From: Cladosporium halotolerans
Lineage: Eukaryota
Assembly (NCBI RefSeq): GCF_011745625.1
Contig: NW_027191468.1
Span: forward strand, 372,001 to 436,000
Direction of reading: 5' to 3'
Length of the DNA stretch: 64,000 nt
Shown: one piece after another, positions 478-5,188 of the stretch
How positions within the stretch are numbered: the stretch's first letter is position 1
Layout of the letters: the number at the start of each line of letters is the position of its first letter
Notes under the pieces: generated by a model
What the model was told of the DNA's origin: nothing
The model's database searches: none
Seen by the model: the letters and a program-made list of their open reading frames with translations, nothing else
Made by a program: the position numbers and the translations under genes

Positions 478-2576
478 ATGATACTGCGTTTCCAAAGTCG
501 CAACGGACAGTTCCGCCTCACCGTCGAGCCCGATACCGATATTGCATCGATCCTACCGCAAGTCGTGGAGAAACTGCCAGCGGGCACTCAGCCATCCTCT
601 GTCACTATCAGCCCAAAGCCTCACGGCGCGGACTCTCGACCTATTGAGGCACTGAAGGGCGTGAGCTTTGGCAAGCTTGGTCTTACCCACGGAACCCAAG
701 TCTTCCTCGATTACAAGGAAGAGGCAGCCGCCACAAATGGACATTCCACTGGGGGTAGCAGATTGAATGGGAAGGAAGTGAGCAAGGAGGAGGATGTATC
801 GAGTATACCTATACCTACGGGAGCCAACGCAAAGCTCATCAAGAACCCTTGGGAAACGGTCAAGCAGTCCGCTCTTGACGACCGCTTAGATCAGCAAGAT
901 GGCAAGATACACCGGAAAAAGGACGAGAAGATGTGCAGACACGGGCCGAAGGGAATGTGCGACTACTGCATGCCCATCGAACCCTACAACAAGGAGTATC
1001 TGGATGAGAAGAAGATCAAGCATCTGTCATACCATGCATACCTGCGGAAACTGAACCAGGGAAAGAACAAGTACGATTCAGGAAGCTCTTACATGCCTCC
1101 TCTTTCCGAGCCCTACTACCGCGTCAACCCACAATGTCCTTCAGGCCACAAACCCTTCCCTCAAGGGATTTGCACCAAATGTCAGCCTTCTGCAATCACG
1201 CTACAGCCGCAAGAATACCGCATGGTCGACCACGTAGAGTTCGCGGACTTTCAGGTGGTAAACCGATTCATCGACTTCTGGCGACAGACCGGCTGTCAGC
1301 GCATCGGTTTCATGTACGGGCGTTACGAGCAGTATGATGAGGTCCCCCTTGGTACCAAGGCCGTCGTGGAAGCTATCTACGAGCCGCCCCAGATCAACGA
1401 GGTCGACGGCGTTACGCTGCGCGAGTGGGAGAATGAAGAAAAGATTGACGAGCTAGCCGCGCTTTGTGGTCTTCAGCGAGTCGGTGTCATCTTCAGCGAT
1501 CTCGTACCTCCTACTGAGCCGGATCAGACAGCGGTCTGCAAGCGCCACATCGACTCGTACTACCTTTCCTCCCTCGAGATCATCTTCGCCGCCCGCTACC
1601 AGGGAAAGTACCCTCGCCCTTCGAAATGGAGTGACACAGGCCGGTTTGGCTCAAATTTTGTTACCTGTGTGATTTCCGGTGACGATGAAGGTCAAATCGC
1701 GGTGTCTGCTTATCAGGCCAGCAACTCTGCCGTGGAGATGGTGCGCGCCGACATTATTGAGCCTTCAGCAGAGCCCTCTGTCATGCTCGTACAGGATGAG
1801 AACGAGGAGAACGAGCTTGGCCGCGTCCGGTACATCCCCGAAGTCTTCTACACGCGCATCAACGAGTACGGTGCACGAGTACAGGAAAACGCGAAGCCAT
1901 CCTTCCCCGTGGAGTACCTACTCATCACTCTTACCCACGGCTTCCCCCTTCAATCACAACCCCTGTTTGCAAAGAACAACTTCGCAGTCGAGAACCGTGA
2001 ACTCATCGGCGAATCGCAGGAGCCTAGAGAGCTTCAAAAGCAGCTGAAGGCTGGTTCCAACCGCGTCGCTCTGGATCAAGCCCAGGGAGTTGTTGCAGTC
2101 TCCGACTTCCATCTGCTTTCTTTCATCAGCAATCTCGACGTCTTAAGCAAAGTAAGTGACACTAGCCCCTGCTCTGAGAATGGTTACTGACCACCGCGTG
2201 CGCAACAACAGAACGAATTCTCCCTTCTCTGCCGCGTTGCAACAACGAAAGACGCCGCGCTCGGCGCGCAGCTCATGCACTCGCCAGGTTGGGCCACTCT
2301 CGAAACGATCCTGCAGATGTAGATGGGAACAAAGCTTCACGATCCAAGTCTTCTTCTCCGCATGCGCGCCTCCACCGCCCGGAGATGAGGGCCTTGTTCC
2401 CATCTGCCTCTACCCTCCTACCGTACCGGATTAACTAACATTTACTTTCTGATGCATTAGGGTGGATGTCGCTGCTTACTATCATAGACGCGCTGAAGGA
2501 GCGGCCGAGCAAGCGCAGCGCCGACTATGATGTCGCGAACGGGCTCGCGAAGAGGGTGCGTAATGTCAACTTGTGA
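478..2576 (+). CDS. NPL4: Nuclear protein localization protein 4 (Cdc48-Ufd1-Npl4 cofactor). Exon 478-2151, intron 2152-2211. Short form ends at TAG 2322 (594 aa); alternative form splices 2288-2460 and ends at TGA 2576 (621 aa)
   Basis: N-terminal UBL-like [10 protein letters not shown], zf-NPL4 motifs [12 protein letters not shown] and CPSGH...CTKC, MPN-like region ([26 protein letters not shown]). Intron GTAAGT...TACTGAC...CAG keeps the frame. Confidence 0.96.
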
Positions 2577-3519
2577 TAAACGCTGTTGGGTTGGAGCGGG
2601 AAGGAGGCTTCTTTTGATTCTGTCATGTTATCCATGTATCAATTATCCCATGGCATGGCATTATGAAACAGTAGTGAAATAGCTTGGGCTCGATGTTCGC
2701 ATTGGCCCGCAGAACTTCTTCCACCGAGCGTGACCCAAGCTCTTCACATGTGACTACCCTCTTGAGGCATCCTGCCCTAATAGCGCAAGAGGTACGCCAT
2801 ATCGCTAGTGAGAATGAACTCGTATCGGAAACTTCATCTTAGGGCAACGTTGCTCCTGCTCAAGGGCCGCGCCTTGGAACTGCATCGGTTGTCTTGTCCT
2901 GTCATGGCGCATATCTGAGTCGCTTTCTTCGCTGTTATAGCCGCTTTGATTGCACGACTCAAACGCCACCTCAGCATTGAGATACTCCCAGAAACATTTG
3001 ATCTAGATACAACACCGTTGACCCTATCACAACCACCTCGCGATCCAAGTGAGATCGGTTTCTAGGATCGCCCCCGGAGCGGGCCCCGCGGTCGTGCTAG
3101 GACGGATTGAGCTTGTGCTCGACTTGGCCCCTCGATCCTTCGGGTCGGCCGAAGGTATCCCGGCATGCCGATCGTCGCGACACCAGGGCGGGATGTTCCA
3201 TCAGGTAGGGTTCGCGTGGTCGATCCGGGCTGCCCTTGACGTACCGGGTGGGTTCTGAGGATGCGCGGTAGCCGCGGTCTGGAACTCGGGCTTGACGACG
3301 ACATGTCGTGTGGAGGATTTGATGGCGTTTACCTGTTCTGCGGAAACCCGTCGATTGGCGTTTTCCGGATTTTCTCCAGCGGTTATTCCCTAAAGACGTG
3401 GCGTGACACAAAATCAGTCTGGAACTAGCCTCAGGTCCCGGGTGATAAGGTCTTTCGTCCTCGATGCTTGAGCGGACAAGTACCTGCAGCTTCAGCGAAA
3501 ATCATTGGAGGCTGTCAAG

Positions 3520-5188
3520 ATGAACGGCCATGAGCTGCTATGGGTTCAGGTGGATGGGCACAAGAGGTCGAACTCGGCTACTGTGTCAACGGTTCGGTCA
3601 CAAGCGATGAAACACTTTCGACGCCGGCAAAGAGCGGAAGCTGTCATGGGTAAGAGCAGCTTTGGGAATATTGGATATAGAACTCGAGACACAGTACTGA
3701 CTGGGTACAGCCTATCGTAAGAGTATCAATGCCCAGTCGGAAGATAACATTCCGGACCGAACGTCCGACAAGACATCTAAAGAATTACCCATCCGAGAAC
3801 CCACAAAGCGATTGAAGTCCGAAGATCCAGAGAGTCCACCACGGCGACCACACAAACGGACCGCCTCGCTGGAGTCCTCGCCAAGTCTGCGCAATCCATC
3901 GATCAGCGCACTTCTTCCCAACGAGGAAGTCGAGGATGCAAGCCCCGGCAAGCGAATGCTCGCCTACATACAGAGCCAGCAGTCCCGCCAGTATCTCGAG
4001 CAAGCTGTGATAACCGCTGTGCGCAGTCCCATCTTCTTTCGTATGAAAGGCGCCGACAGCTGTATCCGAACGATATACCCCAAAAACGACTGGTACTCTC
4101 CTGCCATCGTTACCATGATGAGCAGCTGGATGATTCCTTGGACGACGCCAATGGGCTTGGGCAACGATGCCATAGGCTTGCTGAACATCGGGTGCACAAC
4201 CGGAGACGACCGATTGCTGCTCGAAGGGCGCAAAAGGCATCTCGCCACGGTATCAGCACTCAGGCAAGAACTACAAAAGCCCGATCTGGCTCCTGAAGGC
4301 ATTCTTGCAACGGCGCTCAATCTCCTATTCTGCGAAGTCTACCGTCCTGTCTCTTCCGTGGCAGACGGAGAAAATTGGACACGGCACCTTGCGGGTCTCG
4401 CCGGGATCATGCGAGGAGAGTATCGCGAGCAGCCCTCACCGCACTCGGCCTCCTGGCTATTCATGGTATACGGCCAAATGGACTTGATCCTAGCCCTCGT
4501 AGACCGCCGATTACCACTGTTCGGAGAGCAAGCCCTCAAGTCTCGCGGCAAAAACACGAAGCCAGGCAGTGTGGACGCTTTGCTCCAACTAACCGGCCGC
4601 CTTCCCGCTCTCCTGCATTCAACAGACGCCGTCCGCGTCACGCAGTCCAACGATAAGAACGCACTCGTATCGATCTGGCACGCCCTGCTCCATCTCGAAG
4701 AATCCCTCTTCTGCTGGCTCACGAAATTCAACCCGAGCAAAGAAATCCTGCGCGCCTGCGCCTCTCCCCATCCCCTCACTCCATCCGAACCCCTCCCCTT
4801 CAGCAGCTACCTCGAAGGCATGACCATGAATTTCTACTGGGTCGCGAGACTGCTCACGGCATCGTGTCTGCACGACCTCCAGCCCCTGCTTCCTCCCAAT
4901 CTCCGCCCGGAGCCCAGAACAGACTTCTCCGCAGAAGCGGATAGATTCGCAGCCTTGCTGTGCAGGAGCCTCGCGAGTCTGGAAGAGTACTGCGGGGGCT
5001 GCATCAGTCGGGGCCTGGCGGCGCGGGCGCCGCTGCATTTTGCGGAAAAGTGGTATGAGCTGTCGGGCCGCGGAGAGAGGCTGGAGTGGTGTAGGAAGGT
5101 TGAGAGGGAGCTGAAGGAGGAGATGGTGTGGGTGAATTGGGATGCGTTGTTGCCGTGGTCGTTCGCGGCGTTGCTTTGGTTGGCTTGA
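3520..5188 (+). CDS. Fungal-specific transcription-factor-domain protein (Fungal_trans_2/DUF3468-like) lacking a Zn2Cys6 cluster; exons 3520-3649 and 3711-5188 (535 aa)
   Basis: ATG 3520, then intron GTAAGA...TACTGAC...CAG (3650-3710) joins in frame to the 458-codon ORF. N-terminal VRSQAMKHFRRRQR motif and 'LATALNLLFCEV...WTRHLAGLAGIM' helices resemble fungal C6-TF C-terminal domains. Confidence 0.7.

Follow-up and report, generated by a model that had tools for sequence, protein, structure and literature searches.

The window, a stretch of 64,000 nucleotides, carries an NPL4 gene on its forward strand, the parts of which are collected in Table 1. The Cdc48/p97 unfoldase relies on Npl4 as its essential ubiquitin receptor. 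With its zf-NPL4 and NPL4 (MPN + CTD) domains the product belongs to the NPL4 family, and the exon 1 product gives Pfam matches to PF05020 (E 8.9e-73) and PF05021 (E 1.7e-123). A protein search returned 2740 homologues of the NPL4 product. The whole of the homologue P0023 (78% identical) could be aligned with solved Npl4 chains, and the shared part of exon 2 aligns with residues 561-585 of C. thermophilum Npl4.

The original prediction for this DNA held that the gene encodes two homologous alternative C-termini with a duplicated terminal helix. All coordinates claimed, i.e., those of exon 2, donor, branch site, acceptor, in-frame joining and both stops, proved correct. The GT of the donor (CAG|GTTGGG) is found at 2288-2289 and the acceptor TAG at 2458-2460. 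Joining 2287 to 2461 keeps the frame, with G + GG restoring a Gly codon, and the spliced form then ends in KRVRNVNL, its TGA (2574-2576) being followed by a TAA. The basic clusters are indeed limited in sequence to the spliced form.

Table 1. Features of the NPL4 locus, in window positions.
Feature	Position	Strand	Basis
NPL4 gene, Cladosporium-like fungus	478..2576	+	
Exon 1 (558 aa: UBX-like N-terminus, zf-NPL4, MPN/NPL4 domain, most of C-terminal domain)	478..2151	+	ORF, ATG, Pfam, homologues
Intron 1, constitutive (GTAAGT ... CTGAC ... CAG)	2152..2211	+	absent from X1, X6, X10 contigs (joint 2152^2213)
Exon 2, part common to both forms (25 residues + first base of Gly codon)	2212..2287	+	sequence
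Alternative intron, 173 nt, donor GTTGGG, acceptor TAG	2288..2460	+	retained in X6, X1, X10 contigs; donor kept in 21/21 loci
Helix 1 (11 residues) and stop TAG 2320-2322, C-terminus of the short, intron-retained isoform	2287..2322	+	third-position variation, stop conserved in place
Branch site ACTAAC, 22 nt 5' of acceptor	2434..2439	+	sequence; CTRAC at similar distances in related loci
Exon 3, coding part: helix 2 (G)WMSLLTIID, then tail ALKERPSKR..., stop TGA 2574-2576	2461..2576	+	tail alignment A2
First basic cluster, K-R	2511..2516	+	invariant in 17/17 tails
Second basic cluster, K-R-V-R, 11 residues past the first, bipartite-NLS-like	2550..2561	+	12/17 tails fit KR-X10-12-K[KR]x[KR]
3' untranslated region (at least)	2577..2900	+	X6 record 18 to 2900; X1 record 6 to 2720

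Both helices align to S. cerevisiae Npl4's C-terminal helix (residues 568-580; PDB 6JWI, 6OA9), with yeast G568-Q577 opposite helix 1. In the yeast protein, T571, M574 and I575 are described as touching ubiquitin at its Ile44 patch, and the key determinant of chain recognition is said to be this helix (PMC6910952). Thr571 corresponds to Thr in helix 1 and to Ser in helix 2, Ile575 is Ile in both, and the position of Met574 is occupied by Thr in Cladosporium NPL4. Helix 1 thus carries the equivalents of Thr571 and Ile575, and the duplicated element is, as judged by alignment, the main ubiquitin-binding helix of Npl4. The short isoform stops one residue past the aligned Gln577 and yeast Npl4 three residues past it; the yeast protein has one helix, no intron at this place and no tail.

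The same layout recurs in 20 related metagenome loci, so that both helices are present in 21 of 21 loci including the window, and these span four named orders of one subclass, the Dothideomycetidae. Since layout and splice signals recur together, the likeness of the two helices is, on this comparison, not due to chance. The donor AG|GTTGGG is found in 21/21 two-helix loci and an in-frame YAG acceptor in 20/21, its AG exactly 2 nt before TGG, which bears out the expectation that both GW helices and the splice signals are conserved. Most two-helix loci show CTRAC 20-36 nt upstream of the acceptor, and the intron measures 70-205 nt. The exception is L017, in which neither an in-frame acceptor nor a visible branch site was found. 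The donor had been described as weak. It does depart from the usual fungal consensus at +3, +4 and +6, which would explain inefficient splicing, but an invariant site is not merely a weak one. All 21 loci read xxA-GGT (AG|GT) at this point, and G|GTTGGG is constrained by the Gly-Trp-Ala codons; the equivalent Gly codon of 45 single-helix loci is GGC in 20, GGA in 14, GGG in 6 and GGT in 5.

Over the nine codons of helix 1, the variable columns at codon positions 1/2/3 number 3/0/7. Codon-pair differences among 15 loci are 403 synonymous vs 76 non-synonymous, while the last eight codons of exon 2 give 298 vs 249. The helix 1 stop always occupies the same place, as TAG (7), TGA (4) or TAA (4) in these 15 loci, and the mean pairwise identity drops from 0.60 ahead of it to 0.27 beyond it. 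On the other side of the intron, W1, R14, K17, R18, L28, K30 and V32 are invariant in 17/17 tails (alignment A2), with Arg codons alternating between CGN and AGR and the conserved residues kept via synonymous changes. The tail reading frame is intact in 21/21 loci and has no start codon in most species, so it is translatable only after splicing. Given this conservation of helix 1, its stop, the tail residues and the splice signals, purifying selection is seen on both alternative coding regions and the splice sites, and both forms are, by all comparative signs, under protein-level selection across Dothideomycetidae.

These data bear on the view that the short form is the only one of importance, with helix 2 and the tail reduced to a decaying remnant of the ancestral C-terminus and the splice signals coincidental. 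Such a relic would fit L017, which is without a usable acceptor, and RNA-derived contigs that show the retained form only. An open frame in every locus, residues held invariant through synonymous changes, and donor and acceptor kept across four orders argue strongly against it, and we consider it very unlikely.

Contigs from three studies (X1, X6 and X10) lack intron 1 and keep 2288-2460; they were taken as RNA-derived solely because they skip intron 1. Four runs were examined in all, and the remaining one, X5, contains intron 1 and looks like DNA. Record 18 of X6 is a single contig of 1362 nt, covering 1700-2900 minus intron 1 at a depth of 222. The segment 2288-2460 is read straight through in this record, in records 5 and 6 of X1, and in record 8 of X10 (to 2392). 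An intron-retaining mature mRNA is thus observed in all three, which makes the retained short form the principal mRNA. Of the two RNA forms proposed originally, the retained one is therefore present in the contigs of three runs, and the 2287^2461 joint in none of the contigs of the four; as contigs drop rare variants, its lack is no evidence of absence. Alternative polyadenylation, which had been suggested alongside intron retention, found no support, with one transcript contig running to at least 2900. The end of the X10 contig at 2392 was rejected as a poly(A) site, since adapter-like letters follow.

In fungi, transcripts with a stop a long way upstream of the 3' end are frequently targeted for decay. 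The retained form has its stop far upstream of the 3' end, with about 580 nt of trailing sequence. One could thus take the long spliced form for the genuine protein and see retention as unproductive, either as noise or as an autoregulatory switch-off that ends in a truncated product or in transcript decay. If the isoform were unproductive, the conservation of helix 1, where residues and stop position are kept with a large synonymous excess (403:76), would be left without a reason. The retained form is, moreover, a deeply covered contig in X6, and its product ends like full-length yeast Npl4. We therefore give this explanation only a very slight chance.

Further RNA-like sequences of two-helix fungi were found, and all represent the retained form. 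In the metagenome contigs L012, L016 and L017, intron 1 is absent and the second intron kept, and downstream of it lie helix 2 and the tail. Helix 1 also forms the end of seven unannotated database proteins that have no intron-1 letters (P0048, P0075, P0077, P0081, P0087, P0092 and P0096); as P0077 and P0087 come from L012 and L016, and P0096 is close to L017, these seven add at most about five further taxa. Of the 120 most similar database proteins, 54 terminate at helix 1 and 17 have the tail. The tail-form proteins from two-helix fungi among these 120 best matches number 15, all of them gene models except P0033, a frame accident, and none comes from a transcript. Protein searches for junction-spanning products returned gene models only. 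A search with the tail of P0028 gave 2 uninformative matches among 68 candidates, and one with the tail alignment against longer proteins, in which other candidates crowded the list, gave 14 among 7999, consisting of gene models plus P0125 and P0126 only. In the representative protein search all Pezizomycotina fall into one cluster, and it is informative for outgroup ends only.

Two other routes to the tail were considered and rejected. In-frame splicing from 2319 fails, since no acceptor yields the tail frame. The gene models P0035 and P0131 place a second donor at the Met-stop (AT|GTRR), a site that never has G at +5 in 11 distinct sequences read by eye. Several NPL4 gene models rely on invented splice sites.

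Taken together, we put the probability at roughly 0.75 that the last NPL4 intron (2288-2460) is alternative and that both outcomes encode functional protein, a short retained form and a spliced form with an NLS-like tail. If the intron is left unspliced, translation would continue from the Gly codon into the intron, through the ubiquitin-binding helix 1, and then stop, giving a budding-yeast-like Npl4 that ends at helix 1. Splicing, probably minor or conditional, would remove helix 1 and join the paralogous helix 2 in frame, followed by a basic tail that matches a classical bipartite NLS.

The consensus of a bipartite NLS is KR, a linker of 10-12 residues, and then K[KR]x[KR]. The window tail matches this pattern as KR-11-KRVR, as do 12 of the 17 related tails; in the other five the linker is longer, with 13, 14, 16, 17 and 21 residues. 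The tail is a putative and likely nuclear localisation signal. An AlphaFold2 model of the homologue P0028 (18 sequences) is poor, with a mean pLDDT of 43, and was given no weight; values of about 70-86 are confined to residues 530-598, which include a helix at 585-597, and the tail (599-626) stays below 50. Alternatively, the tail could be another short linear motif, either partner-binding or autoinhibitory, so that the isoforms would differ in activity and not in location. In favour of this, the best-conserved block, L-[AST]-K-R-V-[KR]-x-[VIF]-x-L, has hydrophobic positions which an NLS does not need, the clusters of single-helix fungi lie 17 to about 45 residues apart and thus beyond a strict bipartite signal, and the tail adjoins a ubiquitin-binding helix. 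The invariant core is, however, made up of KR and K[KR]x[KR], and the 10-12 residue linker is kept in most tails; a motif of this other kind is possible and, in our view, the less probable choice. Under the preferred reading of the tail as an NLS, one may speculate that the two isoforms constitute a switch between nuclear and cytoplasmic Npl4.

As to its origin, the intron most likely arose in one step in a Dothideomycetidae ancestor by tandem duplication of a helix segment bounded by AG|GT. The intron is missing at this site in outgroups. After the acceptor, G is found in 15 of 15 distinct two-helix loci and GT in 5 of them, and the further locus L012 has AT. The homology of helix 1 and helix 2 is clear at the protein level; the copies are too old and too diverged for proof at the DNA level, and tandem duplication is thus a candidate mechanism that the sequences by themselves cannot prove.

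In Pleosporales and other classes the helix is present once, and the intron at that site is missing. Their loci read directly from exon 2 into Gly-Trp, and in none of the single-helix loci was an intron found between Pro and Gly-Trp. A donor G|GTGAG[CA] follows the helix in 31 of 34 distinct single-helix loci. In the RNA-like contigs L019 and L020 the tail is missing from exactly this G|GTGAG donor, to an AAG, and P0126 keeps the tail; in these single-helix relatives the segment is a candidate exitron, a coding intron within an exon. A blastn search against all loci gave no same-species genomic partner for L019, L020, L050 or L080. A broader scheme may tentatively be drawn from these hints, namely that all Pezizomycotina have two Npl4 forms, a yeast-like one that stops at the ubiquitin-binding helix and one with a basic, NLS-like tail, and that their ratio would set how much Cdc48-Ufd1-Npl4 acts in the nucleus. 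Most classes would arrive at the short form through removal of the tail by splicing at an invariant G|GTGAG inside the coding sequence. The Dothideomycetidae ancestor would have inverted this logic in one step by duplicating the helix segment, retention of the new intron now giving the short form, and the faster-evolving helix 2 might be tuned to nuclear ubiquitin chains. We regard this scheme as a speculative one that is rather unlikely to hold in full.

Our literature search, which also covered an NLS, found no paper on the splicing of fungal NPL4. Conserved alternative splicing that diversifies proteins is rare in fungi, and in NPL4 two C-termini of an essential gene are maintained throughout a subclass, the swapped piece being the helix that reads ubiquitin chains. 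The intron was apparently born by duplication and is still of dual use, and there are hints that other classes reach the same two products by a different splicing device. In practical terms, the results may help the annotation of NPL4 C-termini in databases.

In Ustilago, alternative splicing reportedly toggles a C-terminal targeting signal on peroxisomal glycolytic enzymes. Likewise, splicing is described to add or remove such a signal on Yarrowia malate dehydrogenase (PMC3372373). Both share with NPL4 the use or non-use of a 3'-terminal intron to give two C-termini, one of them resembling a sorting signal. NPL4 differs from both cases in that its signal looks nuclear instead of peroxisomal, a duplicated helix is swapped as well, and the function is putative. 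In animals, separate NLS-bearing cofactors help to share the Cdc48/p97 complex between cytoplasm/ER and nucleus; the p97 cofactors VCF1/2 (FAM104) carry a classical NLS, travel with p97-UFD1-NPL4 and are reported to promote nuclear import of the complex (PMC10541173). The long Npl4 isoform might serve in the same way, although VCF1/2 are separate proteins with no known homology to the Npl4 tail, and the parallel is one in logic only. The birth of introns from tandem duplication of genomic segments that contain AGGT has been described (Hellsten 2011, PMC3265369; Ma 2016, PMC4974935). The NPL4 intron resembles such introns in being absent from outgroups, in a 5' part homologous, at the protein level, to the following exon, and in AG|GT at the donor (all loci) and at the acceptor (some). 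It departs from them in that the first copy still codes and is used by retention instead of forming a silent intron, and the proposed duplication is ancient, so that the copies have diverged. SKI7/HBS1 (PMC3597508), an ancient and conserved case of fungal alternative splicing, is like NPL4 a rare instance in which a single gene has kept encoding two proteins over long evolutionary spans. It is another gene with another mechanism, and there splicing is reported to have been lost after gene duplication, whereas NPL4 appears to have undergone a re-wiring of its splicing logic.

The NPL4 gene and its alternative end are laid out in the table below. A search of 5.8 billion proteins, with 8000 candidates scored, gave 2740 homologues with E <= 0.001; among the best 120 of these, the closest named one is from Cladosporium inversicolor (91%) and the others are from Dothideomycetes. 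Reading the sequence bore out the donor, branch site, acceptor and in-frame 2287-2461 join of the original prediction. When the alternative intron 2288-2460 is retained, translation ends behind a C-terminal helix encoded in the intron itself (helix 1, short isoform); if it is spliced, exon 3 would supply a second helix copy (helix 2) and a basic tail (long isoform). Downstream of NPL4, a 495-codon open frame (3701-5188, + strand) has no Pfam match.

Features of NPL4 in the window and tail-lacking stretches in two related metagenome contigs
Feature	Position	Strand	Remarks
NPL4 gene	478-2576	+	ORF, Pfam domains
Exon 1	478-2151	+	558 aa; zf-NPL4 and NPL4 domains
Intron 1	2152-2211	+	
Exon 2	starts 2212	+	
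Alternative-intron donor	GT 2288	+	
Branch site	ACTAAC 2434-2439	+	
Acceptor	TAG 2458-2460	+	
Short-form end	TAG 2320-2322	+	exon 2 frame read on, ...[18 protein letters not shown]
Long-form end	TGA 2574-2576	+	2287 to 2461 in frame, ...[41 protein letters not shown]
Basic cluster KR	2511-2516	+	
Basic cluster KRVR	2550-2561	+	11 residues beyond KR
Tail-lacking stretch, L019	1868-1960		
Tail-lacking stretch, L020	1870-1960		

The search for candidate sequencing runs returned none recorded as RNA, and contigs of four runs from four studies were compared with window positions 1700-2900. Intron 1 is missing from those of runs X1, X6 and X10 (joint 2152^2213), which are thus derived from spliced RNA, while the X5 contigs contain intron 1 and look like DNA. 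In all three RNA-derived runs, 2288-2460 is read through uninterrupted: the 1362-nt X6 record 18 (depth 222) spans 1700-2152 and 2213-2900, X1 record 5 has the intron-1 joint and extends to 2312, X1 record 6 spans 2283-2720, and X10 record 8 covers 1702-2152 and 2213-2392. The match of the last of these breaks off at 2392, within the retained intron, where adapter-like letters take over, probably marking a fragment end and not a 3' end. The intron-retained transcript is a mature, abundant mRNA and the main form. Of the two mechanisms originally proposed for a possible isoform switch, intron retention is seen in X1, X6 and X10, and no sign of polyadenylation within the intron was found in the contigs of the four runs. 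The predicted joint 2287^2461 occurs in no contig of these runs; contigs drop rare variants, and the spliced form may still exist. Since the donor, acceptor and branch sites are kept and the tail is coding, as described below, we infer that a spliced mRNA is produced, either in small amounts or in conditions outside those sampled.

A scan of metagenome contigs with the NPL4 alignment matched 437 stretches, 308 of which encode relatives; the best 80 were kept. Both helices are present in 20 of these loci (L001, L002, L003, L005, L006, L008, L010-L018, L026, L027, L043, L046, L051) and a single helix in 47, while 13 stop short of the region or within it (L004). Together with the window, the two-helix set comprises 21 loci, or 17 distinct sequences across the 17 codons compared. 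Both helices and the donor are kept in 21/21, and an acceptor AG lies in frame, exactly two bases upstream of the second TGG, in 20/21. The Gly codon before Trp is GGT throughout and the codon preceding it has A in third position (16 of the 17 distinct sequences read CCA and one TCA), which yields the donor AG|GTTGGG. In 45 single-helix loci read in register, the same Gly is GGC 20, GGA 14, GGG 6 and GGT 5 times; two more were mis-registered and left out. Most two-helix loci have a CTRAC motif that precedes the acceptor by 20-36 nt, although this is not a locus-by-locus count; intron length ranges from 70 to 205 nt. The exception is L017: the sole AG nearby lies in another frame, and a branch motif cannot be made out. 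The cause could be an indel in the assembly, nested splicing, or that this species has lost the long form. This contig (L017:1904-2112) lacks intron 1; in it, 94 nt separate helix 1 from an intact open frame for helix 2 and the tail.

Both ends are conserved as protein. Among the nine codons of helix 1 (G-W-A-T-L-x-T-I-L), varying columns at codon positions 1/2/3 number 3/0/7, compared with 5/3/7 in the last eight codons of constitutive exon 2. Over 15 loci (105 pairs), differing codon pairs are 403 synonymous to 76 non-synonymous in helix 1 and 298 to 249 in exon 2. The stop keeps a fixed place after Met (Phe in L026), spelled TAG 7, TGA 4 and TAA 4 times, and across it mean pairwise identity drops from 0.60 (30 bases upstream) to 0.27 (30 bases downstream). 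An unused intron would not give such a pattern, which argues that the retained mRNA is translated and that its C-terminal end matters. The same samples contain a second, related organism (X1 record 7 and X10 record 9, window 2283-2516), whose contigs match the window as far as the helix-1 stop codon and once more from about 2426 onward, with 115 other letters between; this is a small-scale case of conservation ending right at the stop.

In the tail, W1, R14, K17, R18, L28, K30 and V32 are invariant in 17/17 sequences, while the codons of Arg 14 and 18 are of either CGN or AGR type and Lys is written AAG or AAA, which marks the tail as protein-coding. Met is absent from the tail frame in most species, and there only splicing can put the tail into protein. 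A classical bipartite nuclear localisation signal (NLS) consists of KR, a linker of 10-12 residues and K[KR]x[KR]. This pattern fits 12 of the 17 tails, the other five having linkers of 13, 14, 16, 17 and 21 residues. What stays invariant at the core of the tail is the two basic clusters, as would suit a putative NLS; another binding role would also be compatible with the hydrophobic end and the conserved Leu and Val. In animals, the NLS-bearing cofactor VCF1/2 promotes p97 nuclear import and associates with p97-UFD1-NPL4 (PMC10541173). By analogy, an NLS-like tail of this kind would be a plausible means for fungi to achieve such import. Among the matches listed for literature on Npl4 and NLS, none describes a nuclear signal of fungal Npl4.

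Along its entire length, a retained-form homologue can be aligned with solved Npl4 chains, and GWATLQTILQ aligns with yeast G568-Q577, three residues before the end of yeast Npl4 (580 aa). The short isoform therefore has the architecture of budding-yeast Npl4, ending at the ubiquitin-binding helix. In the structure of yeast Npl4 with diubiquitin, the distal ubiquitin is bound at its Ile44 patch by Thr571, Met574 and Ile575 of this helix, which is described as the key determinant of chain recognition by Cdc48-Ufd1-Npl4 (PMC6910952). At the yeast contact places, helix 1 of the window retains Thr and Ile, and helix 2 has Ser and Ile. The Thr571 place is Thr in 17/17 distinct helix 1 sequences, and in helix 2 it is Ser in 13/17 and Thr in 4/17 tails. 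In the long isoform, the ubiquitin-binding helix would thus be replaced by its faster-evolving copy, with the tail added.

In named records, with one or the other end annotated, the two-helix layout is found across several orders: in Cladosporium (Cladosporiales), Elsinoe (Myriangiales; E. ampelina annotated short, E. australis long), Aureobasidium (Dothideales), and Zymoseptoria, Cercospora, Septoria, Hortaea, Baudoinia and others. The three genera given here with their order belong to the subclass Dothideomycetidae. Periconia and Rhizodiscina (Pleosporomycetidae) and Chaetomium thermophilum have a single helix followed directly by ...ESGERPPKR...LAKRVKGxSL, an arrangement shared by two records that carry names of lichen-forming fungi. 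No intron precedes Gly-Trp in the single-helix sequences compared from these lineages, and thus intron and second helix arose together. AG|GT is still present at the acceptor in 5/15 distinct two-helix loci, and the donor is AG|GT as well. Tandem duplication of a segment bounded by AGGT is a described way in which introns arise (PMC3265369, PMC4974935). Such a duplication of the helix segment may have given birth to the NPL4 intron; the sequence fits, with copies too old for proof at the DNA level. Unlike known duplication-born introns, the first copy stayed in use. Farther out, among the Npl4 representatives P0132-P0280 from outside Pezizomycotina, many stop a few residues past the helix and others continue into an NZF-type zinc finger (C-x2-C...C-x2-C). 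Among the sequences looked at, the basic tail occurs only in Pezizomycotina.

Single-helix fungi appear to possess a splice device of their own. The Gly after the helix is GGT in 34/34 distinct genomic loci (within L021-L079), giving, together with the letters behind it, GTGAGC 28, GTGAGA 3, GTATGC 2 and GTTCGT 1 times; Gly-Glu is GGT GAG, giving the donor G|GTGAG[CA], in 31/34. Of these, 33/34 look like good splice donors within coding sequence, and the codons around them show free variation. L019 and L020, two contigs that lack intron 1, end in ...ILKESGG* and ...ILKESG*, respectively. Past the first G of the Gly codon, their sequence encodes, one frame over, GVSLRGK* and ASNLEGK*, the usual end of the tail, so that the tail is missing exactly from G|GT to AAG|. 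L050 (...ILETAA*) and, less clearly, L080 (...ILQSTG*) can be explained likewise, by acceptors that lie a few bases downstream. P0126, a 300-aa product without intron 1, has the full tail, and no same-species genomic/RNA pair for the tail-lacking contigs was found among the loci compared. These are strong hints that the tail-coding stretch is an exitron giving the same short form. Where kept, the matching Gly of helix 2 in the two-helix clade is GGC (5/5), and the old donor is thus gone there. If this is true, short and long Npl4 exist throughout Pezizomycotina, and Dothideomycetidae altered the means, not the products. In single-helix tail ends, the +1 frame of the G-[AV]-S/K/R-L codons always contains TAG or TAA (GCT AGC, GTT AGC, GTT AAG, GTT AGG, CTA G..), and AGs yielding a stop within two codons number 92/202 in the last 36 nt vs 16/127 further upstream. 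Dual coding may be at work here, with these ends also supplying the short form's stop.

Public gene models conflict over the NPL4 end. In P0012, intron 1 is read through in frame; P0009 contains neither helix; P0035 and P0131 place a donor at the Met-stop and in this way connect helix 1 with the basic tail; and P0122 lacks part of exon 2. Among the best 120 of the 2740 homologues, 54 end at helix 1 and 17 carry the tail. The literature search found no paper on NPL4 splicing in fungi. The anatomy first read from the sequence was right, and beyond it both ends prove to be conserved at the protein level, and the main mRNA, as judged from RNA-derived contigs, is the retained one. As a kind of system it is known, namely alternative 3'-terminal splicing that alters a C-terminal signal; what is unusual is a duplicated functional helix within a retained intron and, probably, the re-wired splicing logic.
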